In this document: piece by piece, positions 28,913-53,699 of the stretch | Layout of the letters: the number at the start of each line of letters is the position of its first letter | Numbering within the stretch: the stretch's first letter is position 1 | NCBI GenBank assembly: GCA_028279595.1 | Contig: JANQNK010000004.1 | Coordinates: forward strand, 160,001 to 224,000 | DNA from: Thermoplasmatota archaeon | GTDB taxonomy: Archaea > Thermoplasmatota > JAKEGO01 | Length of the DNA stretch: 64,000 nucleotides | Direction: 5' to 3' | Translations under genes and position numbers: made by a program | The notes under the pieces: model-generated | Database searches by the model: none | What the model was told of the DNA's origin: nothing | What the model saw: the letters and a program-made list of their open reading frames with translations, nothing else

Positions 28913-29341
28913 TCACTTCTTTGCTTCGGCGTCGTCGATCTCCTGCTTGAGCCACGACTCGACGTCCCCGCCGTGCACCAGTCCGTCGATCTCGTCCTCG
29001 TCGGAGGGTTCGAGCTTCATGATCCAGCCTTCACCGTATGGATCCGTGTTGATGAGCGTCGGGTCGTCCTCCAGGTCCTCGTTCACCTCGAGGACCTCAC
29101 CTGACAATGGTGCGACGAACTTGCCCACCCACTTCGCGGACTGGATCTTCCCGCAGGTCTCTCCGGCCTCGACGTCGTCGCCCTCGAAGGGAAGGTCTAT
29201 GTACGTGGTGTCCCCGGCGGTCTTCTGGTAGAAGTCGTTCATGCCAATGGTCACGTTGCCGTCGTCCTCCTTCCTGACCCACGCGTGCTCTCCGTGGTAG
29301 TACAGCTCATCGGGCATGTCGTATCCGTGGTAAACCGCCAT
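28913..29341 (-). CDS. gcvH: Lipoyl-carrier protein, GcvH/LbpA-like
   Basis: YYHGEHAWVR, lipoyl-Lys motif IQSAKWVG..APLSGEVLEVN, INTDPYGEGWI; GAGGTG RBS. Confidence 0.9.
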   Translation of the reverse strand: MAVYHGYDMPDELYYHGEHAWVRKEDDGNVTIGMNDFYQKTAGDTTYIDLPFEGDDVEAGETCGKIQSAKWVGKFVAPLSGEVLEVNEDLEDDPTLINTDPYGEGWIMKLEPSDEDEIDGLVHGGDVESWLKQEIDDAEAKK

Positions 29342-29401
29342 TTGAACACCTCATACTATTTCTACGGACTTGAATTGATAAACGTTGTTTTAAGGCTTTT
29401 C

Positions 29402-29839
29402 CTAGGTTGTGCCGTCGTCCACAACGACGGTCGGTTCGATGATAACGTCAGACCTGACGGATTTGAAGACAAGACAGTAATCCCGTATGTCGACGAGGCA
29501 CTTCTCGACCTTCTGGCGGTCTGATTCCTCGGCGATCGTGATGACCGGGCGCACAACAACTTGCGTGAACCTTAGCGAACCCTCGGACATCGTGGCCAGT
29601 CCTTCGGCCTCGCTCTCGTATGAGACAAGTCGGATGCGCCGTTTCTCAGCGAGCCACAGGAAGGTCGACATGGTGCAGTGCTCGACCGATGCGACGAATA
29701 GGTCCTCCGGGTTCCAGTAACCTTCGTGGCCGCCGAACTCGGGTCCGCAGGCGACCTCAAGGTTTGGCTTTCCCTCGCTGCCGAGGACCCCTTTCCGCTC
29801 GCCGGTCCACCTCAACCGGGTCCGGTAGGTGTACTCCAT
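29402..29839 (-). CDS. OsmC/Ohr-family protein
   Basis: PEFGG...WNPEDLFVASVEHC.MSTF with a second Cys in YCLVFKS. Confidence 0.85.
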   Translation of the reverse strand: MEYTYRTRLRWTGERKGVLGSEGKPNLEVACGPEFGGHEGYWNPEDLFVASVEHCTMSTFLWLAEKRRIRLVSYESEAEGLATMSEGSLRFTQVVVRPVITIAEESDRQKVEKCLVDIRDYCLVFKSVRSDVIIEPTVVVDDGTT

Positions 29840-29850
29840 CCGCTCTCCCT

Positions 29851-31092
29851 TCACACTATCTCCTCCAGGACGGGCACGGTCCATGTCCCGTTCGGCATGA
29901 TGATGACGCTGGGTTCCTTCCCGCGGGAACGCATCGTCGCCATGGCCTCATCGACAGCGGCCTGAATATCGGTAAAGGGCCTCAGGTGCGCCTTGGTGAT
30001 GAGCTCATCGTCGACGCCCATGACGGTCCATATCTCGGCCCATTGAAGCGTTTGCATGATCCTCAGCGCCTTGTGGTCGCCCAGATGATATCCCCCGGAG
30101 ATGCTGGCCTCGACGTCGTCCAGGCTCTCGATCCCGTGGAGGAAACGTAGGAACGCGTCGTTGCCGACACCGTTCCTGCAGGCAGAGACCCAGATGATGA
30201 TGCCGCCCTCGTTCAGGACCAGTTTACCGTTCTCCAGCGCGTGCTGCGACTGGTACATCTCGAGGTCCTTGGGCGGGGGGACGCAGGTGACGACTATGTC
30301 AGCCTTCCTCGTGACAGGGACGCACTGTAGCGCCATGGCATCCCTGGCAGCAGCTTCGAAGGCTCCGACGATATCGCCGCCGTGTGCAGGAAGAACGCGC
30401 TTCTCGCTGTCGAGGACGAGCTGCATGGTGAATATCCTCTCCGTCCGGAGGAACGACACTGCCTCGGCCATGTCCTCGTGGATAGGGTTCCTGACCAGCG
30501 CGGCTGGTTTCGAGCCGTCGGTCACGGCCAGAGAATGGTTCGCCTCGATCGTCTTGAACCCGGCGATGCCTGGCAGGAAAGACTTCCGCCCTCCGGAGAA
30601 CCCGGCGAAGTAATGGGGCTCGACGCTATTGATCGTTATTATCCTCTCAGCGTCGACCGCTAACTTGTTGAAAGTTACCGGTGTCCCACGGGTGGTTGTC
30701 CCGACCGAAACCAGCTTGCTTTCGTCGCGCGCGTCGTGCACCTCGATCATGTCGCGAAAGCGATCCAGGTGACGTCCGAATATCGTCCGGAGCTGCTCCT
30801 CCGTCGGAGAACGATGTGTTCCGGTGGCCACCAGGAATGTCAACTCGGGTCCGCCGTCAAGGAAAGGGACCACGGAATCCAGCACCTCGGCCGTTGGGGT
30901 AGCCCTTGTAGCATCGTTGACTATGATGAGGACGTTCTGTGCACCTTCCACGAACTCCTCCATCGAAGGTCCGTCGTCGGGCGGTTCCGTCAGAGGAAGC
31001 GAGGACGCATCGTTGGGATGGATGACCTCGCACTCTGCAACTACGCTGATCGTGATCGTCTCTCCGCCGTAATCGATGTCGACGGTCCTCAT
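29851..31092 (-). CDS. larA: LarA-family nickel-pincer 2-hydroxyacid racemase/epimerase (copy 1)
   Basis: DATRATP, ATGTHR, EPHYFAGFSGGRKS, NH, NPIHEDM. Confidence 0.88.
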   Translation of the reverse strand: MRTVDIDYGGETITISVVAECEVIHPNDASSLPLTEPPDDGPSMEEFVEGAQNVLIIVNDATRATPTAEVLDSVVPFLDGGPELTFLVATGTHRSPTEEQLRTIFGRHLDRFRDMIEVHDARDESKLVSVGTTTRGTPVTFNKLAVDAERIITINSVEPHYFAGFSGGRKSFLPGIAGFKTIEANHSLAVTDGSKPAALVRNPIHEDMAEAVSFLRTERIFTMQLVLDSEKRVLPAHGGDIVGAFEAAARDAMALQCVPVTRKADIVVTCVPPPKDLEMYQSQHALENGKLVLNEGGIIIWVSACRNGVGNDAFLRFLHGIESLDDVEASISGGYHLGDHKALRIMQTLQWAEIWTVMGVDDELITKAHLRPFTDIQAAVDEAMATMRSRGKEPSVIIMPNGTWTVPVLEEIV

Positions 31093-31134
31093 CACGATTA
31101 GGAATGTAAGGATGTTATTTCATACATCCGGTGC

Positions 31135-32064: not shown

Positions 32065-32065
32065 T

Positions 32066-34500: not shown

Positions 34501-37500
34501 TCAATACACCTCGTGCATCGCGCCCTTGATCATCGACAGGATCTGCTCGTCCTTGAAGCCCTTCTGCTGGATCGCTCCCGCGCGGCAGGTCGCCGTGCAG
34601 ACGCCGCATCCCTTGCACAGGGCGGTGTTCACGATCGCCTTTCCGCTCTCCAGATCGATGGCCGAGAACGGGCAGGCGGCCACGCAGAGGCCGCAGCCGC
34701 TGCATATCTCCTCCAGGACGTTGGCGGTGATCCCCTCGAGTACCAGGGTGCCCTTCATGATAGGTATCGCCGCCCTCGACGCAGCTCCCTCGGACTGCGC
34801 GATGGTATCGGCCAGGTTCTTCGGGAAGTGCGCTGAACCACAGAAGTAGACCCCGTCGGTGGCGAAGTCAAGCGGTCTGATCTTGGCGTGCGCCTCGATG
34901 AGGTAGCGTCCGGGTCCCGCGGGTATTTTGAACATCTCCATCAGGCCCTCGACGCTCTCGTTGCCCTCGGTCTGGGCCGTGAGCACAACGAGGTCAGCGG
35001 GAAGTTCGAGCGTGTCGCCGTAGATGGAGTCGTGGACGGTCACCATGACGTTCCCGTCATCGTCGACCGCCACCTCTGGCTGTTCCTCGTAGGTGTAGCG
35101 GACGATCTTCACCCTCTTGCCCTCGATGACATCGGTGAAGTACTCCTCCTCGTCCTTTCCGAAGACGCGGATGTCGCGGTAGAGGATGTATACGTCGCTG
35201 TCCGGGTACATCTCCTTGATCATCTTGGCGTTCTTGATGGACACGCCGCAACCCACGCGACAGCAGTATGGCCGCTCCGGCTCCATGGCGCCGGCGCAGT
35301 TCACCATGACCACGGTCTTGGGCTTCTCCAGGGTTCCGGCCTCGATCCTCTCCTCGAGCTCGGTCTGGGTCATGATCTTCTCGCTGTCGCCGTAGCCGTA
35401 CCGGCCGGTGAGGTCGATCTCGCCGAACCCGGAGGCGATTATCGCAGTCCCGAACTCGAGCTTCTCCTCTCCGCCGGGAGTGTTGATGGTGGCCTCGAAG
35501 TTTCCGATGAATCCCTCGATGTCCTCGAGGGTGGACCCGGTCATTACCGTGATGAACTCCGACTCGCTGACCCTCTTGATGAGCGGATCGATGATGTCGC
35601 TCGCCTTCACGTCGGACGGGAAGAGCGTGTGCAGTCTGCGCAGCATGCCGCCCAGTTCGGGGTCCTTCTCGAGAAGATATGTCTTTATCTTCATGTCCGA
35701 GAGAGCGAGCGCCGCCCTCATCCCGGATAGGCCGCCTCCGACTATCAGGACGGACGGAATGACCGAGACCTCCTCCTGCTCCAGGGGTTCAAGGAGCGCG
35801 GACTTGTTCGCAGACATCCGTACCAGGTCCTTCGCCTTCTGGGTGGCCTCCTCCCTGTCGTGGGAGTGGACCCATGAACAGTGCTGTCTGATGTTGGCGA
35901 ACTCGAAGAGGTACTTGTTCAGGCCGGCCTCGACCATTGTGTCCTGGAACAGACCGCCGTGCGTGATCGGCGAACATGCCGCGACGATCACACGGTTCAG
36001 ACCCTCCTCCTCGATCTTCTCCCTGATGTCCTTCTGGGTGTCCTCGGAGCAGGCGAACATTATGTCAGTGGCGTACTCGACGTAGGGCTGTTCGCCAATG
36101 TAATCGGCGACCTCCTTGCAGTCGAGGTAGCCGTTGATGTTCTTGCCGCAGTGACAGACGAACACTCCGATGCGGGGCTTCTCGCCGGTGACGTCCTTCT
36201 GCTCCGGCGGCTCGACGGCCTCCGCCTGGTCCCTGTCTACGATGTCGCTGATGGCCTTGGCGGCCGCACCGCTGGCCATCGCCACGGAGTCCGGGATGTC
36301 CTTGGGGCCCTGGTCGCAGCCCGCGAGGTATACGCCGTCGCGGGTGGACTCGATCGGGTCCGTCATTATGGACTTGACCTGGAAGAAACCGCTCTCGTCC
36401 ACGTCGATACCGAGCACCTCGGCGAGGCGCTGGTTCTCCTGGGACGGGATTATCGCGGTGGAAAGGACGAGCATCTCGACCGTCTTCTCCTTCACCTCCC
36501 GGGTGTGTGTGTCCATGTATCTTATCGTGATGCTCTTGTCCTCGTTCTCGTAGACGCTGGACGGCCGGGCGCGGATGTACTCCACACCCATGTCCTTGGC
36601 CTTGTCGTAGTACTGCTGGAAGTCCTTTCCGTAGGCGCGGAGGTCCATGTAGAAGATGGAGACGTCTGTCTCGGGATCGGTCTCCTTCTGTATCGAGGCC
36701 TCCTTGGTTGCGTACATGCAGCACACGCGGGAGCAGTAGGGCCACCCGAGCTGCTTGCTCCGGGAGCCGACGCACTGGATCCACGCGATCGATTCCGGCT
36801 TCTCGCCGTCGGACGGCCTCCTAGCCTTGCCTTCGGTCGGACCGAAGGAGGAAAGCAGGCGTTCGAACTGCATCGCCGTGATGACGTTAGGGTACTTGCC
36901 GTAGCCGTACTCGCGCCTCATCTCCACGGGCTCGAAGAGCTCGTATCCCGTTGCGACGATGACGCTGCCCACCTTGACCTCGATGTCCTCGGACTTCTCG
37001 AGGAAGGAGATGGCCCCCGGCTCGCAGACCCTCTCGCAGGAGCCGCAGCCGACGCAGGCCTCGTAATCTATCGTGTAGACGATCGGCACGGCCTGGGGGA
37101 ACTCGATGTAGATCGCCTTCCTCTTGGCCAGCTTCTCGTCGAAGACGCTGATGACGTCGACGGGGCACACGGGTGTGCAATCGTCGCAGCCGGTGCACTT
37201 GTCGGGGTCGACGTACTTGCTCTTCCTGTACACGCGGGCGGTGAAGTTGCCCGCCTCGCCCTTCAGATCAGCGATCTCGGCGTAGGTAAGTAAGGTAATG
37301 TTCGGATGTCTGGAGACCTCCACCATCTTCGGGGCGGAGGTGCAGATCGAGCAGTCGTTCGTCGGGAAGGTCTTGTCCAGCTTCACCATGTTCCCGCCGA
37401 TCGTGGACGACTTGTCGATGAGGATCACACGGTATCCCTTGTCGGCGATGTCCAGCGCCGCCTGCATCCCGGATATCCCGGCGCCGACGATGAGCACATC

Positions 37501-37680
37501 GCCCTCCATCTTGCGCTTGCGGGAATGGATCGCTGTCTCTGCGACGATGGCCGCATCGCTCTCAGCCTGGGGCCACTCGTCGTCGAGCTTCGCTATCTCC
37601 GGCACCTGGATCAGGTAGTCGTCCTCAAGGGGGACGTCCTCGTAGTACTGCGGAATTATTCCATCACTCTGGTCGGGCAT
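34501..37680 (-). CDS. hdrA: Large double-FAD heterodisulfide reductase A-like protein (copy 1, flx-linked)
   Basis: GAGISG...LDKTFPTNDC, CVGSR..CSRVCC, CHCG domain, second GGGLSG FAD module, C-terminal 2x[4Fe-4S]. Confidence 0.92.
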   Translation of the reverse strand: MPDQSDGIIPQYYEDVPLEDDYLIQVPEIAKLDDEWPQAESDAAIVAETAIHSRKRKMEGDVLIVGAGISGMQAALDIADKGYRVILIDKSSTIGGNMVKLDKTFPTNDCSICTSAPKMVEVSRHPNITLLTYAEIADLKGEAGNFTARVYRKSKYVDPDKCTGCDDCTPVCPVDVISVFDEKLAKRKAIYIEFPQAVPIVYTIDYEACVGCGSCERVCEPGAISFLEKSEDIEVKVGSVIVATGYELFEPVEMRREYGYGKYPNVITAMQFERLLSSFGPTEGKARRPSDGEKPESIAWIQCVGSRSKQLGWPYCSRVCCMYATKEASIQKETDPETDVSIFYMDLRAYGKDFQQYYDKAKDMGVEYIRARPSSVYENEDKSITIRYMDTHTREVKEKTVEMLVLSTAIIPSQENQRLAEVLGIDVDESGFFQVKSIMTDPIESTRDGVYLAGCDQGPKDIPDSVAMASGAAAKAISDIVDRDQAEAVEPPEQKDVTGEKPRIGVFVCHCGKNINGYLDCKEVADYIGEQPYVEYATDIMFACSEDTQKDIREKIEEEGLNRVIVAACSPITHGGLFQDTMVEAGLNKYLFEFANIRQHCSWVHSHDREEATQKAKDLVRMSANKSALLEPLEQEEVSVIPSVLIVGGGLSGMRAALALSDMKIKTYLLEKDPELGGMLRRLHTLFPSDVKASDIIDPLIKRVSESEFITVMTGSTLEDIEGFIGNFEATINTPGGEEKLEFGTAIIASGFGEIDLTGRYGYGDSEKIMTQTELEERIEAGTLEKPKTVVMVNCAGAMEPERPYCCRVGCGVSIKNAKMIKEMYPDSDVYILYRDIRVFGKDEEEYFTDVIEGKRVKIVRYTYEEQPEVAVDDDGNVMVTVHDSIYGDTLELPADLVVLTAQTEGNESVEGLMEMFKIPAGPGRYLIEAHAKIRPLDFATDGVYFCGSAHFPKNLADTIAQSEGAASRAAIPIMKGTLVLEGITANVLEEICSGCGLCVAACPFSAIDLESGKAIVNTALCKGCGVCTATCRAGAIQQKGFKDEQILSMIKGAMHEVY

Positions 37681-38203
37681 TCTTACCAGCCTCTAATCCT
37701 CTCTCGAATGCGTTCACGTTGAGGTCTATGAACCGCTTCGGCACGCTGTCTACTACGGCCTTCTTGACGGACTCCGGGTCGAGGAGGTCGTCGATCCCGG
37801 CCATGGCACCCACCATCGCGATGTTGGTAACGATCTTGTTACCCAGGTCCTCTGCGATCTTCTGGACCCTGACCTTGTAGATCGGCCGACCTATGTCGTG
37901 GTTCGGCACGAGGTCTGGATCGATGATAATGACTGTGTTCTCATGCAGATCGTCGCGATACGTGTTGAAGGCCTCCTGGGCCATCGCCACGTACAGGTCC
38001 ACGCCGGTCGGGCGCGGGTATCCGATCTTCTCGTCCGAGATCAGGACCTCGGAGCGGGCGGCGCCTCCGCGGGCCTCGGGTCCGTATGACTGGCTCTGGA
38101 CAGCATTGAGGTCTCCGAACACGCAGGCTGCCTTTCCCCAGATGAATCCGGCCAGGATCACTCCCTGACCGCCGAAACCGCAGATCCTCACTTCACGTTT
38201 CAT
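37664..38203 (-). CDS. korC: 2-oxoacid:ferredoxin oxidoreductase gamma subunit
   Basis: GFGGQGV, QSYGPEARGG. The 2-oxoglutarate specificity is inferred from context. Confidence 0.88.
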   Translation of the reverse strand: MKREVRICGFGGQGVILAGFIWGKAACVFGDLNAVQSQSYGPEARGGAARSEVLISDEKIGYPRPTGVDLYVAMAQEAFNTYRDDLHENTVIIIDPDLVPNHDIGRPIYKVRVQKIAEDLGNKIVTNIAMVGAMAGIDDLLDPESVKKAVVDSVPKRFIDLNVNAFERGLEAGKNARPE

Positions 38204-38205
38204 GT

Positions 38206-43837: not shown

Positions 43838-44269
43838 TCAACCTATGTTCTTCCTGAAGAGACTGACGAAGGCCATCTGCGGGATCGACCTCTTCTCCTC
43901 GTCGGTGAGGCATTCGAGGTCGGTCTCGTCGATGTTCTGGCGAAGGACTATCTGCCTGAGGGCCTCCATTATCTTGGTAATGTTGATATCCCTCGGGCAC
44001 CGCTCGGCGCAGGCGAAACACGATGCGCAGAGCCAGATAGTCTTGGATTCGAGGACCTCCTTCTTGTCGAGAATGACATATCTCAGTACCTCATCCACAG
44101 TGAGGTCCATCTCGTCCATGAACGGGCATCCTGCGGCACATGTGCCGCATTGATAGCAACCGAACACGTCCTCCTCGCAAAGGCCCTCCAGCTCATCGAT
44201 CAACTTCCCGCTGACAACTATATGCTTATCAGCGGAGTCCTGGCAGCCCCCTTCGGTTTCTGTTGCCAT
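43838..44269 (-). CDS. hdrC: HdrC-like 2x[4Fe-4S] subunit
   Basis: ATG 44269 after GGAGG; CYQCGTCAAGCP, IWLCASCFACAERCP. Confidence 0.88.
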   Translation of the reverse strand: MATETEGGCQDSADKHIVVSGKLIDELEGLCEEDVFGCYQCGTCAAGCPFMDEMDLTVDEVLRYVILDKKEVLESKTIWLCASCFACAERCPRDINITKIMEALRQIVLRQNIDETDLECLTDEEKRSIPQMAFVSLFRKNIG

Positions 44270-44483: not shown

Positions 44484-47400
44484 CTAGAGGACCTCGCAGA
44501 GCGCTCCCTTGATCAGGGAGAGTATCTGCTCGTCCTTGAACCCCTTCTGCTGTACGGCACCGGACCTGCATGTCGCGGCGCATACTCCGCATCCCTTGCA
44601 GAGGGCCGTGGTGACGACTGCCTTCCCGTCCACGAGCTCGATGGCAAGATATGGACAGGCTGCCGCGCATAGGCCGCAGCCCGAGCAGAGCGCCTCGTTC
44701 ACCGACGATACGGTCGCCTCGGTCTCGAACTTGTCGCTCGATATTATGGTGCAAGCCCTCGAGGCGGCCGCATAGGCCTGGGCGATCGCCTCCCCGATGA
44801 ACTTCGGTGAATGGGCCATTCCAGCGAGGAAGACCCCCTCGGTGGAGAAGTCCACGGGCCTCAGTTTCACGTGCGCCTCGAGGAAGAAGCCGTCCTCGTT
44901 GAGCGGGACCTTCAGTAGCTTGCCGATGTCGGCGTTCCCGGGCTGCGGGATTATGGCCGGTGCGAGCACGACGAGATCGGCCTCGATCTCCAAGTCCATG
45001 TCGAGGATGTGGTCCCTGGTGCCGACGACCAGACCGTCCTTCCCCTTGGCGACGGTGGGCTTTCGGTCGAGGCTGTAACGTATGAATATGACGCCTTCGG
45101 CGCGGGCCCTTTCGTAAAGGGTCTCCTTGAACCCGTACGTGCGCATGTCACGATATAGGACGTAGACGTTCGCGTCCGGATGCGCCTCCTTTATCGCGAG
45201 CGCGTTCTTGACGGCGTCGGTGCAGCAGACGCGGCTGCAGTACGGCCTGTGCTCCTCCCTCGAGCCGACGCACTGGATCATCGCGATGGTCTTCCCGGAC
45301 AGGTCGGCCCCTTCTGCCATCATTCCCTCGAGGTCGAGCTGGGTGACGACGCGCTCGTCCTCGCCGAACAGGTACTCCTCTGGCTTGGACTCGACCGCGC
45401 CGGTGGCGACTATGACAACGCCGTGCTCGATCTCGATCTGGTCGCTGTCCTGCTCCACGGTGGTCCGGTAGTTGCCGATGTATCCGTCGATATCTATGAT
45501 CTGCGAGTTACTATGTACTGTAATGAGCGGGTTGGAGTCTACCTTCCCGATGGTATCGCGGAGGAATCCTTGCACGTCCATCCCCTCGCTGGAGTGATGG
45601 ATCCGGCGCATGACCCCGCCGAGTTCCGACTGTGCCTCGATCAGGTCCACCGGATATCCCTGCTCGGCGATGGCAAGGGCCGATATCATGCCGGACAATC
45701 CGCCGCCCACAACGAGGGCGGACTGCGTGATGTCCAGTTCGACCATCGGAAGAGGTTCGATTATCGAAGCCTTGGCGATGGCCATTCTGACCAGGTCCCT
45801 GGCCTTCTCGGTCGCCGTGGACCTGTCATCCATGTGGACCCACGAGCACTGGTCCCGGATGTTGGCCATCTCGAAGAGGTGGGCGTTGAGCCCGGCCTCG
45901 CGTATCGTGGCCTGGAAGAGCGGTTCGTGCGTCCTCGGCGTGCACGATGCGACGATGACGCGGTTAAGATGGTTCTCCTGGATGGTCTCGACGAAGCGCT
46001 TCTGGGTGTCCTGGGAGCAGGTGTAGAGGTTGTCTTCGGCATAGACCACGCCGGGCAGCCCCCTTGCGTAGTCGACGAGGCCTGGTACGTCGACGTAACC
46101 GCCGATGTTGATGCCGCAGTGGCAGATGAACACGCCGATCCGGGGGCCGACGCCCGTGACGTCCAGCTCGGGCGGGAGCGCCTTCCTCTCCACCATTGTG
46201 TTCCTCGCCTCGGATATCAGGCCGCTGGCCTTCGCGGCGGCACCGGAGGCTTCCATGACCGTTTCCGGGATGTCCTTCGGACCGGAGAAAGCGCCGCAGA
46301 CGAACACGCCGTCCCTGGACGTCTCGACGGGGCACTCCTCCTGGGTCTGGCAGAAGCCCCGCTCGTTGAGGTCGATCCCCATGCGGCCGGCCAGGTCGCG
46401 GGAGTCCTCCTTGGACGTGAACCCGACCGACAGGACGGCCATGTCGAACTCCTCCTCGATGAGCTGTCCGTCCTCGGTCTCGTACTGGATCGTCAGGTCG
46501 TGGGTCTCCGGGTCCTCCTTGATCTCCGATATCCTGCATCGCAGGAAGCGGACCCCGTACTCGTCCTTAGCCCGGTTGTAATATGATTCGAAGCCCTTGC
46601 CGAAGGTCCGCATGTCCATGAAGAAGATGGTCGGTTCTATTGACGGTACATGCTCCTTGGCTATGACGGCCTCCTTGATGGCGTACGTGCAGCAGACCGA
46701 TGAACAGTAGTCAGCGCCGCAGCCCAGGTCCCTGGACCCGACGCACTGGACCCACGCGATCTTCTTCGGCTGCTTGCCGTCCGAGGCCCTCAGTACATGG
46801 CTCTTGTACGGGCCTGATGCGGAAAGTATGCGCTCGAACTCGATGCTCGAGACGACGTTGGGGAATCGGCCGTGACCGTACTCGCCCTTCTGGTCGGAGT
46901 CGAACTCCTCGAACCCGGGACAGAGTATGATCGATCCGACGTTGATCTCCGACAGTTCGTCCTTGTCGTCGTAGACGATGGCGTCGGCAAGGCAGAGGTT
47001 CTCGCATAGCCCGCAGCCGATGCACTTCTCCCTGTCGATGGCGAATGCCAGGGGCACCGCCTGGGGGTACATGAGATAGATCGCACGCCTTTCCGAAAGG
47101 CCCTCGTTGAAGACGGAGACGGCGTCGATGGGGCACTCCTTGGCGCAGACGCCGCATCCCGTGCACTTCTCGACGTCCACGTATCGCGCCTTCTTCCTGA
47201 TCTTGACCTTGAAGTCACCGGCCTCGCCCTCGACGGACTCGACCTCGGAATATGTGATTAGTTCGATGTTGGGATGTCTTCCGACGTCCACGAGCTTTGG
47301 GGCCATGATGCACATGGAGCAGTCGTTCGTCGGGAACGTCTTGTCCAGCTGGGCCATCGTCCCGCCGATCCCCGGCGATGAGTCGAGGAGATAGACCTTG

Positions 47401-47492
47401 AAACCCGAGTTGGCCAGGTCGAGGGACGACTGCATCCCGGCGATCCCGCCTCCGACCACGAGAACGGCTCCGACCTTGTTCTCGGCCGTCAT
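44484..47492 (-). CDS. hdrA: Large double-FAD HdrA-like protein (copy 2)
   Basis: True start ATG 47492 (ATGA overlap); GGGIAG, QLDKTFPTNDC, two CVGSR..CC motifs, CHCG, C-terminal ferredoxin. Confidence 0.92.
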   Translation of the reverse strand: MTAENKVGAVLVVGGGIAGMQSSLDLANSGFKVYLLDSSPGIGGTMAQLDKTFPTNDCSMCIMAPKLVDVGRHPNIELITYSEVESVEGEAGDFKVKIRKKARYVDVEKCTGCGVCAKECPIDAVSVFNEGLSERRAIYLMYPQAVPLAFAIDREKCIGCGLCENLCLADAIVYDDKDELSEINVGSIILCPGFEEFDSDQKGEYGHGRFPNVVSSIEFERILSASGPYKSHVLRASDGKQPKKIAWVQCVGSRDLGCGADYCSSVCCTYAIKEAVIAKEHVPSIEPTIFFMDMRTFGKGFESYYNRAKDEYGVRFLRCRISEIKEDPETHDLTIQYETEDGQLIEEEFDMAVLSVGFTSKEDSRDLAGRMGIDLNERGFCQTQEECPVETSRDGVFVCGAFSGPKDIPETVMEASGAAAKASGLISEARNTMVERKALPPELDVTGVGPRIGVFICHCGINIGGYVDVPGLVDYARGLPGVVYAEDNLYTCSQDTQKRFVETIQENHLNRVIVASCTPRTHEPLFQATIREAGLNAHLFEMANIRDQCSWVHMDDRSTATEKARDLVRMAIAKASIIEPLPMVELDITQSALVVGGGLSGMISALAIAEQGYPVDLIEAQSELGGVMRRIHHSSEGMDVQGFLRDTIGKVDSNPLITVHSNSQIIDIDGYIGNYRTTVEQDSDQIEIEHGVVIVATGAVESKPEEYLFGEDERVVTQLDLEGMMAEGADLSGKTIAMIQCVGSREEHRPYCSRVCCTDAVKNALAIKEAHPDANVYVLYRDMRTYGFKETLYERARAEGVIFIRYSLDRKPTVAKGKDGLVVGTRDHILDMDLEIEADLVVLAPAIIPQPGNADIGKLLKVPLNEDGFFLEAHVKLRPVDFSTEGVFLAGMAHSPKFIGEAIAQAYAAASRACTIISSDKFETEATVSSVNEALCSGCGLCAAACPYLAIELVDGKAVVTTALCKGCGVCAATCRSGAVQQKGFKDEQILSLIKGALCEVL

Positions 47493-48253
47493 TCCGACAC
47501 CTCCCCGACGAGTATGTAGCGTGGGTCGTCGTCCACGATGTCCATCATGTGGACCTGTCCGGCGTTCTCGAGGTCGATCATGTACTTGAAGACCGTCGCC
47601 GTGTCCATCTCGACCGCTTCGGCGATCGATGGGACCGTCGCGGGCGATCCGGCCCTGATGGCGGACCGTATCAGTTCCCGGTTGTACTCGTTCACTATAT
47701 TGTTCCACAGGATGTCCTTCAGTTCGGCCTCGTCGAGCTTGTCGCCGTAGACGTTGCCGTGGTCGACCATGTCCCGCTCCTTGCCGACGAGCCATCGGAT
47801 GCGGTCCATCGAGGCGATCTTCTCACCGACCGCTGCCTTCGGTCCGGCGTCAGCCGCGTCGAGCGGTCCGAGCTCCCGGATGCGCTCGGTGAAGTCCGTG
47901 ATGACCTCGCCGAACCTCTGGCCCTCGGCGGCCGAGACCCAGTCGAGGAGCAAACGGTCGGGGTCGATGCCGACCTTCTCCATGACGCGGAAGGTCAGGT
48001 CCATCTTCCTCTCGGCCTGGTAGTTGCCTGTGAGGTAATGGCAGTCGCCCGGATGGCAGCCGAGGACCGCGACGCCGTCCATACCGTTCCTGAACGCCTC
48101 GAGTACGTGGAGCGGGTCCACCCGGCCGGAGCACATGACGCGGATGACCCGCATGTTCGGAGGGTACTGGACCCGCGAGACACCGGCGAGGTCCGCGCCC
48201 GCGTAGGCGCACCAGTTGCAGAGGAATCCGAGGAGCTTGGGTTCGTAGGCCAT
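47489..48253 (-). CDS. mvhD: MvhD-like [2Fe-2S] protein fused to a C-terminal winged-helix-like domain
   Basis: Start ATG 48253; [27 protein letters not shown]; ~120-aa extension ending ATVPSIAEAVEMDTATVFKYMIDLENAGQV. Confidence 0.85.
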   Translation of the reverse strand: MAYEPKLLGFLCNWCAYAGADLAGVSRVQYPPNMRVIRVMCSGRVDPLHVLEAFRNGMDGVAVLGCHPGDCHYLTGNYQAERKMDLTFRVMEKVGIDPDRLLLDWVSAAEGQRFGEVITDFTERIRELGPLDAADAGPKAAVGEKIASMDRIRWLVGKERDMVDHGNVYGDKLDEAELKDILWNNIVNEYNRELIRSAIRAGSPATVPSIAEAVEMDTATVFKYMIDLENAGQVHMMDIVDDDPRYILVGEVSE

Positions 48254-51200
48254 CAGGCCACCCCCCTGTAGGCCTCGATCTGGGCCGTGATCTCCTCGTT
48301 CGTGAAATGCTTCATGGTGATGGCCAGCTTCGGACAGCTTGCTCCGCAGACGCCGCAGCCCTTGCACGATGCGGGGATGACCTGAGCCTTGCGTCCGCCC
48401 TCCTTCAGAACTAGCTCCATGGCCTTGAAGGGACAGTTGGTGACGCACAGACCGCAGCCGATGCACATCTCCTCGGTGATATCGGCAATGGCGGGATTGA
48501 CCCTGACCTCGCCCTTGGCGAGCAGTGTCGAAGCCCTTGCGGCCGCAGCGTACGCCTGTGCAATGGACTCTTCCATCGTCTTCGGGGAGTGTGCCATGCC
48601 GGCGAGGAAGACGCCGTCCGTGGCGAAATCGACAGGACGCAGCTTGACATGCGCCTCGAGGAAGAAACCGTCCTCGTTGAGGGGGACCTTGAGCATCTTC
48701 GCCAGGTCGACCCTGTCGGGGCGCGGCTCGATGGCCGGTGCCAGTGCTACTATGTCCGCCTCTATGAAGAGCTCTTCGCCGAGTATCTTCTCCTTGACCT
48801 TGACCGTCAGCGCATCGCCGTCAGTGTCCACGGCGGGCTTGCCGTCCAGGTCGAACCGGACGAACACGACGCCGAGCTCCCTTGCGCGGCCGTAGTGGCT
48901 CTCCTTCAATCCATACGTGCGCATGTCCCTGTAGAGGATGTAGACCTGTGCCGATGGGTCAGTTTCCTTGATCCTGATGGCGTTCTTGATGGCGTCCGAG
49001 CAGCAGACGCGGCTGCAGTACGTGTGGCTCTCGTCCCTTGAACCGACGCACTGGATCATGGCGACGGTCCTCCCGACCGGTTCGCCCTCAGCGATCCGTC
49101 GCTCCAGCTCCGTCTGTGAGATGACGCGCTCGTCCTCGCCGAAGAGGTACTCCGCAGGTGCCGATTCGACCGCGCCTGTCGCGACGATTATCGCACCATG
49201 CTCGACCCTCTCCGGGCCGTCCGGCGTGTCTATGACCGACTCGAAGTTGCCGACGAAGCCGCCGATCTCCGAGACCTTCGCGTTGAGGTGGACATCGATG
49301 ATGTCGCTCTCCCCGATCCGGTCCACGAGCGAGCCCAGGTATTCCTGGACGTTGTCATTGTCAAGTGTGTAATGTATGTTCCTCATGTTCCCGCCGAGAG
49401 CGTCCTCCTGTTCGACGAGTGATACTCCGAAGCCCTGGTCCGCAAGGGCGAGGGCAGCGGTCATTCCCGCAAGTCCGCCGCCGATCACGAGGCCGTGCTG
49501 GATGACGTCCAGTGAGAGTTCCTCGAGGGGTTCGATGTGCGCCGCCCGAGCGACGGACATCCGGACTAGGTCCTGCGCCTTCTCGGTCGCGGTGGCCTTG
49601 TCGTCCATGTGGACCCACGAGCACTGGTCCCGGATGTTGGCCATCTCGAAGAGGTGGGCGTTCAGACCTGCCTCCCGAAGCGTCTCCTGGAATAGGGGTT
49701 CGTGCGTCCTTGGAGTGCACGAGGCAACGAGCACGCGGTTCAGCCCATGCTCCTTGATCCGGTCGATGAGCGTGTGCTGTGCGTCCTGGCTGCAGGAGTA
49801 GATGTTCTCCTCGGCGTGGACGACGTTCGGCAGTCCCCTGGCGTACTCCACGACCGCGGGCACGTCGACGTAGGCACCGATGTTGATGCCGCAATGACAT
49901 ACGTAGACGCCGATCCGCGGCTCCTCGCCGGAGACGTCGCGCTCGGGGACGAACTCGCGCTCCTCGACGAGAGTCCCGCGTCCGGACGATATCATCGCGC
50001 CAGCCTTCGCGGCCGCGCCGGAGGCCTCCATCACGGTCTCCGGGATGTCCTTCGGACCGGAGAATGCGCCGCAGACGAAGACGCCTGGTACGTCGGTCTC
50101 CATGGGCCTCGTCTCCTCGGTCTCGCAGAAACCGAAGTCGTCCAGGGATATGCCGGCCGTCTCGGCGAGGTCCTTGACGCCCTCGCCCGGCTCCAGGCCG
50201 ATGGAAAGGACGACCATGTCGAAGGTCTCCTCCCTCAATGCCCCTTCCTCGCTCTCGTACCTTATCCTGAGGTCCTTCCCGGGGGTCTCCTGGACCTCCG
50301 AGATCCTGGACCTTATGAATCGGATGCCATGCTGGTCCTCGGCGCGGTTGAGATAGGACTCGAAACCCTTGCCGTGGGTGCGCATGTCCATGTAGAAGAT
50401 GGTCGGCTCGACGGAACCGGAGTGCTCCTTGGCGATTATGGCCTCCTTGATGGAGTAGGTGCAGCAGACGGAAGAGCAGTACTCGTTCCCGCATGACCTG
50501 TCCCTGGACCCGACGCAGTTGATCCAGGCGATCCTTTTCGGCTCCTTCCCGTCGGACGGCCTGAGCACGTGACCTTCGTACGGACCGGAGGCAGAAAGTA
50601 TCCGCTCGAACTCGAGGGACGTCACGACGTTGTCGAAGCGGCCGTAGCCGTATTCGCCCTTCGCCTCTGCGTGGAAACCCTCGAACCCGGGCGCCATGAC
50701 GATCGACCCTACCTCGACGGTGCGTTCGATATCCTGCATGTCGAAATCGATTGCGTTAGCGGGGCAGGCCTCGACGCACTTCATGGCGCACTTGCCGGTC
50801 TTGACCTGGAGGCAGTTGACGGGATCGACGACGTACCGGAGCGGTACGGCCTGGGGATATGGGATGTAGATCGCGCTCCTCTCCTTCAGCTCCTCGTCGA
50901 ACTCGTTCCTGAGACGCCCCTTGAGGACGCATGCCTCGGCGCAGAGGTTGCATCCGACGCAGGCCTCGGTTACGCGGCGTGCTCTTTCGGTGATCTTGAC
51001 GGTGAAGTCGCCCGCCTTTCCGTCGATCGCAGTGACCGACGAGTTCGTCATCAATTCTATGTTCGGGTGCCTGCCGACGTCCACGAGCTTCGGCGACAGG
51101 ATGCAGAGGGAACAGTCATTGGTTGGAAATGTCTTGTCGAGCTGTGCCATCGCCCCGCCTATCGCGGGCTTGTCCTCCACCATGTAGACCTTGAAGCCGG

Positions 51201-51279
51201 CGTCGGCCAGGTCGAGTGCGGACTGGATGCCACCAATGCCGCCCCCGACTACCAGCACAGCGCCGACCGGGTCGCTCAT
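48253..51279 (-). CDS. hdrA: Large double-FAD HdrA-like protein (copy 3)
   Basis: Same architecture as copy 2; directly follows hdrC-hdrB. Confidence 0.92.
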   Translation of the reverse strand: MSDPVGAVLVVGGGIGGIQSALDLADAGFKVYMVEDKPAIGGAMAQLDKTFPTNDCSLCILSPKLVDVGRHPNIELMTNSSVTAIDGKAGDFTVKITERARRVTEACVGCNLCAEACVLKGRLRNEFDEELKERSAIYIPYPQAVPLRYVVDPVNCLQVKTGKCAMKCVEACPANAIDFDMQDIERTVEVGSIVMAPGFEGFHAEAKGEYGYGRFDNVVTSLEFERILSASGPYEGHVLRPSDGKEPKRIAWINCVGSRDRSCGNEYCSSVCCTYSIKEAIIAKEHSGSVEPTIFYMDMRTHGKGFESYLNRAEDQHGIRFIRSRISEVQETPGKDLRIRYESEEGALREETFDMVVLSIGLEPGEGVKDLAETAGISLDDFGFCETEETRPMETDVPGVFVCGAFSGPKDIPETVMEASGAAAKAGAMISSGRGTLVEEREFVPERDVSGEEPRIGVYVCHCGINIGAYVDVPAVVEYARGLPNVVHAEENIYSCSQDAQHTLIDRIKEHGLNRVLVASCTPRTHEPLFQETLREAGLNAHLFEMANIRDQCSWVHMDDKATATEKAQDLVRMSVARAAHIEPLEELSLDVIQHGLVIGGGLAGMTAALALADQGFGVSLVEQEDALGGNMRNIHYTLDNDNVQEYLGSLVDRIGESDIIDVHLNAKVSEIGGFVGNFESVIDTPDGPERVEHGAIIVATGAVESAPAEYLFGEDERVISQTELERRIAEGEPVGRTVAMIQCVGSRDESHTYCSRVCCSDAIKNAIRIKETDPSAQVYILYRDMRTYGLKESHYGRARELGVVFVRFDLDGKPAVDTDGDALTVKVKEKILGEELFIEADIVALAPAIEPRPDRVDLAKMLKVPLNEDGFFLEAHVKLRPVDFATDGVFLAGMAHSPKTMEESIAQAYAAAARASTLLAKGEVRVNPAIADITEEMCIGCGLCVTNCPFKAMELVLKEGGRKAQVIPASCKGCGVCGASCPKLAITMKHFTNEEITAQIEAYRGVA

Positions 51280-52163
51280 GCCGCCTCCTCTCCCTCCTCG
51301 AGTTTCGCCAGGAGGTCCTTGGCCTTGACCTTGTTGAGCCTGAATCCCAGCTGTTTCTTGTCCATTCCGTAAGCGAGGCCCAGCAGCTGGGGGTAGTAGA
51401 GGACCGGCAGGCCGTACTCCGTCTCGTACTTCTGCTCGATCTTCTTCTGATTGTCCTCGTACATGACGGTACAGAAGGGACAGACCGTGATGAGCCCGTC
51501 AACCGGGTTCGCCGTGATGTGATCGAGCTTCTTCTTCGCCATCTGGAGGGCGATGTCCTCCTCCACGCCGAGGATGGCCCCTCCGCAGCATTCGAGCTTG
51601 TCCTGGTAGTCGACGGACTTCGCTCCGGCGGCCTCGATGAGCTCGTCGATCGTCCGCGGGTCCTCGGCGTCGTCGAAGCAGTGCACTTCAGCAGGCCTGA
51701 GGTAGTGGCACCCGTAATGGACCGAGAACGAGAAGTCGCTCATGTCCCGTGTGATGGGGTCCTTGATCTTCTCAAGACCTATATCCTCGTAGAGCATCCT
51801 CGAGAAGTGCTTGATCTTCGTCCCTGGCTTGAACTCGCAACCCACGTCCTTCAGGTCCTCGTTGACCTTGGCGCGCAGTTCGGAGTCCTCCGAGAGGATG
51901 TGGTTAGCCTCGGCAAGTACGCCGGTGCAGGCGTTGCAGAGGGTCACGATATCGACGCCCTCCTTCTGGGCCTGACATATGTTCCTGGCAGCGAGGGCCA
52001 GAGTGCTCCTGGCACTCGTCGATTTCACGGGATATCCGCAGCACGAGAAACCGTCCATGTCGACGAGCTCGATGCCGAGCTTCTCGGCGACTGCGCGGGC
52101 GGAGAGTTCGTAGTTCTGACCCCTTACGGGGATCGTGCAGCCTAGGAAGAGTGCGTACTTCAT
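51276..52163 (-). CDS. hdrB: Heterodisulfide reductase subunit B
   Basis: FLGC, FSCCG, CNAC, HYGCH, ECCG, CPFC, PVLYYPQLLG. Confidence 0.92.
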   Translation of the reverse strand: MKYALFLGCTIPVRGQNYELSARAVAEKLGIELVDMDGFSCCGYPVKSTSARSTLALAARNICQAQKEGVDIVTLCNACTGVLAEANHILSEDSELRAKVNEDLKDVGCEFKPGTKIKHFSRMLYEDIGLEKIKDPITRDMSDFSFSVHYGCHYLRPAEVHCFDDAEDPRTIDELIEAAGAKSVDYQDKLECCGGAILGVEEDIALQMAKKKLDHITANPVDGLITVCPFCTVMYEDNQKKIEQKYETEYGLPVLYYPQLLGLAYGMDKKQLGFRLNKVKAKDLLAKLEEGEEAA

Positions 52164-52648
52164 TCACACACCTCCGCGATGGCCGGGTCCTTGACGACCT
52201 TCCTGACCTCGTCGATGGTCTTCTGGACGGGGGGCAGGCCCATCTTCTCGCGCTTCTTGTTGTCGAAGTCCTCGACCTCGTAGAGACGGCCGAACTCGAG
52301 CACGAGCCGCGCCTGCTCCTTGAAGGAGGGATGCATGTATCCCTCCCGTACGGCGATGTTCTTCAATGCCGTCATGATGTCGGTGAGGTGTACGTCCTGG
52401 GGACACCTGTCGTAACAGGTATAGCATGTGGAACAGAGCCATATGAACTCGCTCGACAGTACCTCTTCCCTCATTCCAAGAAGGACCATCCTGATGATCT
52501 TGCGGGGATTGTACTTGTCGTCGATCTCGCGGACGGGGCATCCTGCCGTGCAGGTTCCGCACGCGAAGCAGCGGGATATCTCCCATCCACCGAGTTCCTT
52601 CGAGACCTCGTCCTTGAAGTTCGGATCAAGCTCGCTGGTCCTTATCAT
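52160..52648 (-). CDS. hdrC: Heterodisulfide reductase subunit C
   Basis: CFACGTCTAGCP, YNPRKIIR, IWLCSTCYTCYDRCPQ. Confidence 0.92.
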   Translation of the reverse strand: MIRTSELDPNFKDEVSKELGGWEISRCFACGTCTAGCPVREIDDKYNPRKIIRMVLLGMREEVLSSEFIWLCSTCYTCYDRCPQDVHLTDIMTALKNIAVREGYMHPSFKEQARLVLEFGRLYEVEDFDNKKREKMGLPPVQKTIDEVRKVVKDPAIAEVCE

Positions 52649-52649
52649 C

Positions 52650-53699
52650 TCACTTTGCCTCCATGACCGCTTTTGTGATGTCCCTGGGCTCGACGCCTGG
52701 CGTCTGGACCTCGGACTCCTCGTAGAACTCCTCGATCGCGTTCACGACCTCGGACTCGTCCCTCTGGGTGTCGGCCAGGCTCGCCTCGAGACCGGCCAGT
52801 TCCTTCTTCGGAAGGAGCGTGAAGTCGCCGGAGATGCCGATGTCGGCGATGCGGGCCTCGACCACCTCCTGCTGCGTCCTTATCAGGCCGCCCTGGGCCT
52901 TGTACATGCCGTAGAGTATCTCCACGCCTTCCTTGATCTTGACCCCGCTGGGGACCTTCGGGGTCTTCCTGTACTTGAACTCGGGTGAATCGAACCAGAC
53001 CGCCAGTTCCTCCATCTTCGCGACCACGTCGTCGCTCAGGGTCAGCGGGGTCAGCTTTCCGAGGAGGTCCTCGTATCGGCTATGGAGCACGCCGGTGAGC
53101 TCCTCCCTCGGGGGGAGCCTTCCGAGTTCCTTCTTCATTGTGGTGACGTTCTCCTCCATCGTCTTGAAGACCTTGTCCCTGAACTTCTCGTCGGGGACCT
53201 TGATCGCATGGGCCATCGCGTTGAAGTCGAAGTCCATGATGAGCGAACCGACGAAGACCATCGAATCGTCTATGTCCGCGCCGCCGAGACCCGCGATCTT
53301 GCGGCCCTCGGTCGTGATTATGTCGTTGACCTCGCGGAACTTGGTCTGGATGCCGTACTCCTCGTAGGTCTCGATCGGCGGGATCGACAGCTGCTGGTAG
53401 ATCTCCTTGACGCTCTTGGGGAACGCCGGATTGTCCTGGTTCCAGATTATATGGTAGAATATCTGGTCCCTGTCGAGGTAGACCGTGCCCCCGCCGACCT
53501 CCCTGCGGATTATCGGGAGACCCGCTTTTTCGCAGTAGGCGGTGTCAACCTCCTTCTCTAGGTCCTGGAAGTATCCCACGCTGATGAACGGGGTCTCGGG
53601 GGACACCGTCACCATCGCCTCCACGCCCATCCGGGCGAGGGTGTGGAATATCAACATCGACTGTTTCCATGGGCGCACACCGAGATCGAGCAGGTACAC
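52650..53699 (-). CDS. lplA: Lipoate-protein ligase with fused accessory domain (LplAB type)
   Basis: SVGYFQ...EVD, RREVGGGTVYLD, NDI...GRKIAG (catalytic Lys); C-terminal KAQGGLIR...ISGDF; GTG start after GAGGTGA. Confidence 0.9.
   Translation of the reverse strand: MYLLDLGVRPWKQSMLIFHTLARMGVEAMVTVSPETPFISVGYFQDLEKEVDTAYCEKAGLPIIRREVGGGTVYLDRDQIFYHIIWNQDNPAFPKSVKEIYQQLSIPPIETYEEYGIQTKFREVNDIITTEGRKIAGLGGADIDDSMVFVGSLIMDFDFNAMAHAIKVPDEKFRDKVFKTMEENVTTMKKELGRLPPREELTGVLHSRYEDLLGKLTPLTLSDDVVAKMEELAVWFDSPEFKYRKTPKVPSGVKIKEGVEILYGMYKAQGGLIRTQQEVVEARIADIGISGDFTLLPKKELAGLEASLADTQRDESEVVNAIEEFYEESEVQTPGVEPRDITKAVMEAK

Follow-up and report, generated by a model that had tools for sequence, protein, structure and literature searches.

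Which substrate do heterodisulfide reductase (Hdr)-type bifurcating enzymes use in anaerobes without coenzyme M (CoM) and coenzyme B (CoB) or DsrC? Such enzymes are common, and the question is a long-standing one. It is raised in concrete form by a 64,000-nucleotide stretch of DNA (contig JANQNK010000004.1, C1:160001-224000; hereafter the window) from the genome of an uncultured, non-methanogenic marine archaeon of the Thermoplasmata. Here a 27-kb minus-strand run of mostly translationally coupled genes, glcD-glcF-lplA-hdrC1B1A1-mvhD-hdrA2 and hdrC2B2-frdBA-korDABG-hdrA3-flxDCBA-larA-osmC, then a separate gcvH, combines Hdr genes with a lipoate ligase (LplA), a fumarate reductase (Frd), a 2-oxoacid:ferredoxin oxidoreductase (Kor), Flx and a GcvH-like lipoyl carrier, within an island of reductive tricarboxylic acid (rTCA) cycle genes (Table 1). 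A preliminary description of the locus joined these parts into one candidate new system, with lipoyl-GcvH shuttling electrons between the Hdr modules. The explanation we prefer, to which we give about an even chance of being correct, is that the island contains two Hdr-based systems next to each other, system 1 being a bifurcating fumarate reductase and system 2 an Hdr dependent on the lipoyl carrier. The main contribution of this analysis is a census of which Hdr the carrier follows, together with the independence of the fumarate reductase module from that carrier.

A distinct clade of GcvH-like lipoyl carriers

The window GcvH has the PF01597 fold with a lipoyl-lysine in the motif IQSAKWVGK, compared with LESVKAAEE in the canonical copy on contig C18, and the two copies are 38% identical. 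We gathered 60 relatives; Lys70 is invariant across the resulting 61 sequences and Trp71 is likewise invariant, giving the signature SxKW[VIT]G after which we call this type K-W GcvH. In a tree that included 40 canonical GcvH proteins, the K-W sequences are set apart by a branch whose Shimodaira-Hasegawa-like approximate likelihood ratio test (SH-aLRT) support is 100. The window GcvH lies outside the housekeeping clade, and the canonical E-S-V-K-[AST] motif is not present in it. It contains a single cysteine (Cys63), with none near either terminus. The only recognisable lipoyl acceptors in the genome are the two GcvH proteins, of which the canonical copy is available to GcvP and GcvT.

Two related sequences deserve separate mention. 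A Thermoplasmata chromosome encodes, adjoining a lipoate ligase, a second carrier whose motif is of K-F type (FESAKFVSK; L068:19419-19800), and this protein joins the K-W clade on a long branch. A K-W GcvH from WOR-3 (L033:10001-10435) is nested in the Thermoplasmata subclade, which suggests transfer of the carrier between domains.

Neighbouring genes also set the K-W type apart. When neighbours within 7 kb were clustered de novo, with matches to window proteins within 10 kb used as context, the 57 K-W loci contained LplA in 24 cases, two radical-SAM families (probably LipS1 and LipS2) in 22 and 13, HdrA in 22, LarA in 17, class I fumarase in 14 and OsmC in 13, while 0 of 20 canonical GcvH loci had any of these neighbours. 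No gcvP or gcvT neighbour was found in the 57 K-W loci. One expectation failed: the nearest relatives of the window LplA were expected to adjoin hdr, and in most of the Thermodesulfobacteriota loci, at 55% identity, only the ligase was seen.

The carrier follows HdrC1B1 rather than the fumarate reductase

The census used 301 genomes drawn evenly from the phylum, the GTDB class itself holding only 3 genomes. The motif of every GcvH match was checked on the DNA, with the lipoyl position mapped to Lys70 of the query. K-W GcvH was present in 25 genomes, an HdrB1 orthologue in 24, a FrdA orthologue in 47 and AclB in 76. K-W GcvH and HdrB1 occurred together in 22 genomes, K-W GcvH alone in 3, HdrB1 alone in 2 and neither in 274, a link that spans at least 10 GTDB families and is patchy inside one family. 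K-W GcvH is also commoner where FrdA is present (18 of 47 genomes) than where it is not (7 of 254; FrdA only, 29; neither, 247). Nevertheless, 29 of the 47 genomes with the Frd-Hdr-Kor module (62%), including two that are closed and 99% complete, have no K-W GcvH.

Genomes of other phyla give the same picture. Among 30 module genomes chosen across phyla, 7 encode K-W GcvH, 21 (one of them at chromosome level) only a canonical GcvH and 2 none; 7/7 of the K-W genomes, and 0/23 of the others, also encode an LplA homologue of the long, two-domain form (E at most 1e-43). Starting instead from 80 HdrB1-type loci, a GcvH-family gene lies within 10 kb in 24, and 20 of these are K-W GcvH, mostly as the direct flank of hdrC1B1, in Desulfobacterota, Syntrophaceae, Bacillota and other groups. 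The genomic partner of the carrier is the HdrC1B1-type Hdr and not HdrB2. The preliminary description had proposed a stand-alone lipoyl carrier tied to Hdr, and in this it was right, as shown by the distinct clade, the dedicated ligase and the Hdr linkage across phyla; the neighbourhood survey that it called for finds a recurrent link of K-W GcvH with lplA and Hdr, though no strict link to the Frd module.

Bathyarchaeia contain what appears as a second Hdr-linked variant, a GcvH adjoining hdrC1B1 with a K-C motif (L279:10961-11344, L281:10995-11345; ESVKCVSE / ESQKCVSE).

These counts bear most directly on the shuttle. In such a closed loop, Flx and HdrA would reduce ferredoxin and, via HdrB1C1, lipoyl-GcvH, and HdrB2C2-FrdAB would re-oxidise the carrier with fumarate, making it an obligatory shuttle or swinging arm. 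This is consistent with the full sets of CCG cysteines in HdrB1 and HdrB2, the placement of all parts within one 27-kb run, the Aerophobetes loci L173-L175 in which gcvH-lplA lies directly ahead of hdrC2B2-hdrA-frdBA, the enrichment among FrdA-positive genomes, and the failure to find genes for CoM synthesis (ComA), DsrC or Mcr in the genome. However, the carrier is absent from 29/47 phylum and 23/30 cross-phylum module genomes and tracks HdrB1 rather than HdrB2. Since the module is commonly found without K-W GcvH, it does not need a lipoyl shuttle. The loop also requires 2 NADH to reduce ferredoxin and the lipoyl group, which is endergonic at textbook potentials (see below). We consider it unlikely.

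A candidate disulfide partner for HdrC1B1

The features of a methanogen-type HdrABC are present in the window, namely two CCG motifs in HdrB, two 4Fe-4S clusters in HdrC and an FAD/Fe-S HdrA, with HdrB1 just below the TIGR03288 cut-off. All ten CCG cysteines are retained in both HdrB1 and HdrB2. Judged from sequence, K-W GcvH is a credible candidate for the protein-bound disulfide partner of HdrC1B1-type Hdr. More broadly, and with somewhat less than an even chance, the K-W clade, lipoylated by its own ligase, may be the physiological disulfide/dithiol substrate of a widespread HdrC1B1A Hdr in non-methanogenic anaerobes, and may here also link to the fumarate-reductase Hdr module. Gene content, coupling, synteny, co-occurrence and cofactor residues are the observations on which this model is built; from them we infer lipoylation, binding, electron flows and their direction. 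A complex prediction of HdrB1 (13-row alignment) with K-W GcvH (61-row alignment) gave a score of 0.00 with controls not run, and counts neither way on binding.

Several points weigh against one part or another of the two-system explanation. In 58 orthologues of HdrB2 all ten CCG cysteines are unchanged, which suggests that HdrB2 still performs thiol/disulfide chemistry with some substrate. Bacterial gcvH-larA-glcD-glcF-lplA units occur without Hdr within 10 kb (L045, L054, L063), and the Desulfobacterales unit consists of gcvH, lplA and radical SAM only; given such Hdr-less units, the carrier may serve GlcF or another partner first. On a Deltaproteobacteria chromosome (L309:5993-9436) and in an unclassified bacterium (L280:8233-9410), two or three tandem GcvH-like genes upstream of hdrC1B1 have no lipoyl lysine, and their products may be carrier-fold subunits without a cofactor. 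At its textbook value, the lipoyl couple is unusually low in potential to be the "high-potential" acceptor of an HdrB site. The census has its own caveats: the HdrB1 orthologue cut-off (E 1e-79) was set after the score distribution had been seen, co-occurring relatives are not independent, the window's genome is 86% complete, and metagenome-assembled genomes (MAGs) are incomplete. Regarding system 1, FrdA and AclB occur together in 21 of the 301 phylum genomes, FrdA only in 26, AclB only in 55 and neither in 199; with ATP-citrate lyase (ACL) missing from 26/47 module genomes, the role of the module is not tied to the rTCA cycle in general.

The Hdr-less units bring up another possible main partner of K-W GcvH, namely GlcD, the GlcF-like protein and LarA, with the CCG domains of GlcF linking a D-2-hydroxyacid/2-oxoacid pair to the lipoyl dithiol and Hdr taking part only in some lineages. 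The gcvH-larA-glcD-glcF-lplA operon is found repeatedly in bacteria, among them WOR-3, Zixibacteria and Stahlbacteria (L033, L044, L045, L054, L063; L010, L069, L070), in the window glcD and glcF are coupled to lplA with gaps of 5 and 9 nt, and both CCG motifs of the GlcF-like protein are intact. We nonetheless find this proposal improbable, as many K-W loci have hdrC1B1 and no glcDF within 10 kb (L064, L071, L072, L077, L292, L294, L299), and transfer from lactate (-190 mV) to lipoyl (-290 mV) would be uphill, leaving only the reductive direction easy.

There is, further, a slim chance that the genes form a peroxide-defence thiol relay in which Hdr and Flx keep K-W GcvH reduced and the carrier recycles OsmC, an arrangement that could coexist with our preferred explanation. 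The osmC gene is directly upstream of gcvH in the window, and OsmC occurs in 13 of the 57 K-W loci, mostly in Thermoplasmata with one locus in Clostridia. The arrangement resembles lipoyl-dependent Ohr/OsmC systems and the Staphylococcus aureus GcvH-L operon, and lipoylated proteins in oxidative-stress defence are documented (PMC12440151, PMC10332631). Yet the association with OsmC is seen largely in a single archaeal lineage and not in most bacterial K-W loci, and a relay of this kind leaves the near one-to-one link with HdrB1 unexplained. Finally, it is hardly credible that the window protein is an ordinary glycine-cleavage H-protein or lipoyl-relay protein near hdr by chance: its PF01597 match is strong and GcvP and GcvT are present in the genome, but the ESVKAA-type canonical paralogue (on which ground we rejected the glycine-cleavage reading), the separate K-W clade, the recurrence across many phyla of Hdr, Lpl or GlcDF neighbours rather than gcvP/T, and the failure to find in the genome an E2 that would need a relay all speak against it.

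The fumarate reductase module is a new archaeal member of a proposed kind

The flavoprotein FrdA keeps the dicarboxylate-site residues (HPT 325-327, Arg346 in TEKVRGLGG, His439 in HYQNGG and Arg473 in GKNRLMGNS), has an Asn at the position of the covalent-FAD His (HGDANSMMAQGG) and bears an N-terminal extension of 90 aa. Its best NCBIfam model is that of TfrA, at a score far below the cut-off, and TfrB is matched only piecewise, by FrdB, HdrC2 and HdrB2, at 33-53 bits against a cut-off of 385 (NF004900 / NF004898 for the TfrA / TfrB families; Table 1). On sequence, FrdAB-HdrC2B2 is best classed as distantly related to thiol:fumarate reductase, with its parts split; its scores do not make it a member. 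No membrane segment was predicted in any cluster protein (Kyte-Doolittle 19-residue mean, maximum 1.78), as the preliminary description had said of the fumarate reductase. These features support a predicted soluble, anchor-less fumarate reductase of split-Tfr type with non-covalent FAD, joined to the genes of Hdr, Flx and the 2-oxoglutarate:ferredoxin oxidoreductase (OGOR) within the rTCA island. The genome encodes only one further FrdA homologue, at 33% identity.

The arrangement is widespread. A scan for FrdA homologues followed by tblastn of the window proteins on 80 FrdA loci found FrdB-FrdA, HdrC2-HdrB2, KorABG and an HdrA3-type double HdrA syntenic in about 70, including those of Thermoplasmata (71-80% identity, SG8-5 among them), Mnemosynella (Archaeoglobi), a Thermococci MAG, TA06, Bipolaricaulota and Aerophobetes (56-63%). 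In the host an rTCA role is plausible because the only Frd and Kor seen both lie inside the acl island. Hydrogenobacter reportedly has a soluble NADH fumarate reductase of five subunits, a finding credited to Miura and colleagues in 2008.

The idea that the fumarate step pays for ferredoxin reduction, put forward as new in the preliminary description, has already been published as a hypothesis (PMC6315080, PMC11636981, PMC13147460, PMC7282089). Rubin-Blum et al. (2019) described rTCA clusters with korABCD and tfrAB interleaved with flxABCD-hdrABC, and proposed a complex that shuttles electrons to OGOR and fumarate reductase (PMC6315080). Mitchell et al. (2024) reported co-expression and mentioned transfer that is direct or goes through a DsrC-like protein and reduced ferredoxin (PMC11636981), and a 2026 survey modelled NADH as reducing fumarate and ferredoxin at once (PMC13147460). 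In these clusters, known from tubeworm symbionts and Thioflavicoccus mobilis, a soluble AB-type Frd, a four-subunit OGOR and Flx-Hdr are interleaved beside acl, acn, idh and mdh, with bifurcation from NADH to fumarate and ferredoxin proposed. The window likewise has kor and a soluble frd interleaved with flx-hdr and clustered with acl, acn, idh and mdh. It differs from them in its archaeal host, in a TfrB split into FrdB, HdrC2 and HdrB2, in three HdrAs of about 1000 aa and in a second Hdr operon with a ligase and a K-W carrier; moreover, DsrC was not found in this genome. A fermentative analogue comes from Pseudoclostridium thermosuccinogenes, whose succinate operon encodes fumarase, Flx-Hdr and a fumarate reductase described as novel (PMC7282089, citing Koendjbiharie and van Kranenburg 2019); there Frd is genetically fused to Flx-Hdr, and succinate formation is proposed to be coupled to ferredoxin reduction. 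That operon has no ACL or OGOR coupling, and PMC7282089 does not mention a lipoyl carrier.

The Frd-Hdr-Kor-Flx part of the locus thus adds an archaeal member to a kind of cluster proposed earlier, with the archaeal host, the split TfrB and the three double-length HdrAs as variations. As such, it extends the hypothesis of a cheaper rTCA cycle from bacteria to Thermoplasmata.

Proposed electron flow and energetics

In our preferred explanation, system 1 (hdrC2B2-frdBA-korDABG-hdrA3-flxDCBA) would be a cytoplasmic split-Tfr fumarate reductase built on a bifurcating HdrA and an NAD(P)H-oxidising Flx. Electrons from NAD(P)H would be split between fumarate, exergonically, and ferredoxin, endergonically, and the ferredoxin would then serve the adjacent 2-oxoglutarate synthase. 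The route to FrdBA would most likely be an Fe-S chain through HdrA, HdrC2, (HdrB2) and FrdB, or else a thiol other than K-W GcvH; direct Fe-S transfer fits because so many module genomes have no carrier. System 2 (glcDF-lplA-hdrC1B1A1-mvhD-hdrA2 with larA, osmC and the K-W gcvH) would be a lipoyl-carrier-dependent Hdr. Here the ligase would lipoylate K-W GcvH, whose dithiolane/dithiol would be the protein-bound substrate of the HdrB1 CCG site, and possibly of the GlcF-like protein too, K-W GcvH taking the role held elsewhere by CoM-S-S-CoB, DsrC or LbpA.

Textbook potentials are -320 mV for NADH, near -450 mV for ferredoxin, near -290 mV for lipoyl and -190 mV for lactate. A bifurcation step driven by NADH needs an acceptor at -190 mV or higher. 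The path from NADH through Flx and HdrA to lipoyl-GcvH, as first proposed for this locus, therefore runs uphill except where the carrier is kept about 2000-fold oxidised (>99.9%), which is possible for a swinging arm in a complex but is not the simple reading.

As to meaning (MECHANISTICALLY), the K-W lipoyl carrier tied to HdrC1B1, a putative new variant of the LbpA idea, is the more interesting part of the locus. It is small and easily expressed, with a recognisable signature, its own ligase and a near one-to-one link to one type of Hdr, which makes it a concrete candidate for work at the bench.

Comparison with known systems

The sHdr-LbpA-sLpl(AB)-LipS1/S2 system of sulfur oxidisers, as described by Cao et al. 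2018 (PMC6067878) and Tanabe et al. 2023 (PMC10332631), similarly pairs hdr with a GcvH-like single lipoyl-domain carrier, distinct from housekeeping GcvH, and a dedicated ligase; LipS-like radical-SAM genes adjoin the carrier in relatives of the window system as well. LbpA has two conserved cysteines near its N- and C-termini, some archaeal LbpAs excepted (PMC6067878), whereas the window carrier is without the terminal pair and has the K-W motif instead. The hdrC1B1A-hyp-hdrC2B2 order was not found, and the scan of the cluster proteins gave no member of the TusA, DsrE or rhodanese families (no genome-wide search was made for TusA and DsrE). The hosts here are anaerobic and the context is carbon and electron metabolism rather than sulfur oxidation. 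As the cysteine pair and the hdr arrangement are missing and no sulfur transferase appeared among the cluster proteins, we rejected the sHdr reading.

In Culexarchaeia, Kohtz et al. 2022 (bioRxiv 10.1101/2022.04.06.487207) described an Ehe cluster with HdrBC, SdhA, HdrA2B2C2 and GcvH, and suggested in passing that the GcvH encoded with Hdr may bear the unknown disulfide. That case resembles ours in having, in a non-methanogenic archaeon without CoM and CoB, a GcvH encoded with Hdr as a putative disulfide carrier; it differs in its membrane-bound hydrogenase context, and its authors neither defined a clade nor gave a link to a ligase or a census of co-occurrence.

Methanothermobacter TfrAB (Heim et al. 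1998, as cited in PMC6315080) provides the best NCBIfam match of FrdA (TfrA) and shares with the window enzyme non-covalent FAD, fumarate-site residues, Fe-S and CCG modules and the lack of an anchor. Here, by contrast, the scores for both the TfrA and the TfrB model are far under the cut-offs, three genes take the place of TfrB and there are extra clusters. As ComA and mcr were not found in the 86%-complete genome, CoM and CoB thiols seem unlikely substrates.

The FlxABCD-HdrABC of Desulfovibrio vulgaris (Ramos et al. 2015, as cited in PMC6315080 and PMC7282089) has been proposed to be a bifurcating NADH dehydrogenase with the protein disulfide of DsrC as acceptor. The window has its features: a FlxA-like NAD(P)H/FAD/2Fe-2S flavoprotein, two Fe-S subunits of FlxB/C type and an MvhD-like FlxD adjoining HdrA. 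The differences lie in the order (hdrA-flxDCBA), the double-length HdrA, the placement of HdrBC with frd, and DsrC, which was not found in the genome.

Organization of the gene run

Genes were identified by Pfam and NCBIfam scans, and the starts or frames of korD, flxX, mvhD, hdrA2 and glcF were re-read against the mechanical open reading frames (ORFs). All genes named in the preliminary description are present in one co-directional run, the ligase stop lying 1 nt from the hdrC1 start. The extent and content needed correction: the run begins upstream of 28913-53699 with glcD and the GlcF-like gene, larA and osmC intervene between flxA and gcvH, and korD and flxD lie in other frames. The re-read korD contains two CxxCxxCxxxCP motifs, and flxD is an MvhD-like gene of its own (146 aa) abutting hdrA3.

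Most junctions lie between a 34-nt overlap and a 14-nt gap. The genes hdrC1, hdrB1, hdrA1, mvhD and hdrA2 overlap successively by 1-4 nt, hdrB2 and frdB by 4 nt, and korD-A-B-G-hdrA3 by 1-17 nt, while frdB and frdA abut. Only two gaps are sizeable, both AT-rich: 60 nt ahead of gcvH, and 214 nt ahead of hdrC2, where a separate promoter is probable.

The three paralogous double-length HdrAs (1008, 1002 and 1059 aa; window 34501-51279) are 44-60% identical. Each is a tandem duplication that has one FAD Rossmann site near residue 12 and another near residue 600 and is without the N-terminal domain of methanogen HdrA; these proteins may be fused pseudo-dimers. MvhD1 has an extension of about 110 aa past its FlpD domain with no Pfam match, and the second MvhD/FlxD is without it.

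Table 1. Genes of the run, in order of transcription, with window coordinates and basis of assignment.
Gene or product	Coordinates	Strand	Basis
glcD-like, FAD-linked D-2-hydroxyacid dehydrogenase, first gene	54773..56215	-	PF01565, PF02913, E 1e-47 to 1e-58
GlcF/HdrD-like, two 4Fe-4S motifs and two CCG domains	53709..54767	-	PF02754, PF13183; start refined; Cys pattern
lplA, two-domain lipoate-protein ligase, Lpl(AB) type	52650..53699	-	PF21948 E 1e-32, PF10437
hdrC1	52160..52648	-	TIGR03290, 137.5 bits
hdrB1, two complete CCG motifs, ten CCG Cys	51276..52163	-	TIGR03288, 307.7 bits vs cut-off 345
hdrA1, 1008-aa double HdrA, two FAD Rossmann sites and ferredoxin domains	48253..51279	-	PDB 5ODC HdrA match, E 1.6e-208
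mvhD1, FlpD domain and C-terminal extension of ~110 aa	47489..48253	-	PF02662, E 1.5e-54; start refined
hdrA2, 1002-aa double HdrA, 60% identity to HdrA1	44484..47492	-	Pfam and motifs
hdrC2	43838..44269	-	TIGR03290, 82.6 bits; TfrB positions 131-241
hdrB2, CCG subunit coupled to frd	42938..43831	-	TIGR03288, 149.6 bits; TfrB positions 264-485
frdB, 2Fe-2S and dicluster Fe-S subunit	42177..42941	-	PF13510/PF00111, Fer4 families; TfrB N-terminus (positions 19-82)
frdA flavoprotein	40527..42176	-	PF00890, E 2e-63; TfrA 311 bits vs cut-off 718
korD 40255-40512, korA 39084-40265, korB 38206-39084, korG 37664-38218; four-subunit 2-oxoacid:ferredoxin oxidoreductase	37664..40512	-	PF01855, PF17147, PF02775, PF01558
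hdrA3, 1059-aa double HdrA; comes after kor in related genomes too	34501..37680	-	Pfam, motifs, synteny
flxD/mvhD2	34060-34500	-	NF040770/NF045873
flxC-like Fe-S gene	33143-34063	-	flxC/B/A-like jointly: PF17179, PF00175, PF10418, Fer4_8
flxB-like, AsrA/HydB-type	32066-33130	-	flxC/B/A-like jointly: PF17179, PF00175, PF10418
flxA-like, NAD(P)H-FAD-2Fe2S	31135-32097	-	PF00175, PF10418
LarA-family 2-hydroxyacid racemase/epimerase homologue	29851..31095	-	PF09861, E 8e-47
OsmC-family peroxiredoxin homologue	29402..29884	-	PF02566, E 9e-16
K-W type GcvH-like lipoyl carrier (IQSAKWVGK)	28913..29341	-	PF01597, E 1.7e-40

The host genome and the rTCA gene island

The assembly is 2.29 Mb in 21 contigs and 86% complete, and its nearest relatives are Thermoplasmata/Thermoplasmatota MAGs from sediments. 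The window also encodes monomeric idh, aclA, aclB, acn, sucC, sucD, mdh and fumA/B, plus a second larA; with frd and kor, the whole (r)TCA enzyme set is present in one island. The preliminary description noted that dsrC, mcr, gcvP/T and E2 were lacking, and none of these was found within the window. In the genome as a whole, at its 86% completeness, searches turned up no DsrC, McrA, ComA or E2 catalytic domain. GcvP (C4:69324-70598), GcvT (C7:38270-39016) and the canonical GcvH (C18:254677-255036) are, however, encoded on other contigs. The preliminary description had allowed that the window GcvH might work with such a GcvPT system; GcvP and GcvT do exist, yet the canonical GcvH is available for them.

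A second, different lipoate ligase and LipS-like genes also occur elsewhere in the genome (C5, C11). On the former contig, of lower G+C (0.51), a radical-SAM gene is followed by the second ligase (G000:C5:53530-55500, the ligase itself at C5:54474-55500), resembling the LipS/Lpl pairs that adjoin K-W GcvH in relatives. A search of sequencing runs with window 40500-50400 listed one DNA data set, a coral metagenome that is possibly the source sample, and no RNA data set.

Three other genes of the window may be recorded. An ORF of 2261 aa (22025-28810) lies directly downstream of gcvH, in a stretch whose G+C content is lower (0.50, against about 0.60). Between sucCD and acn, a 451-aa protein (16092-17447) has Lrp/AsnC ligand-binding domains, with no DNA-binding domain detected. 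A 1370-aa protein with at least 13 PKD-type repeats (2077-6189) is probably a surface protein.

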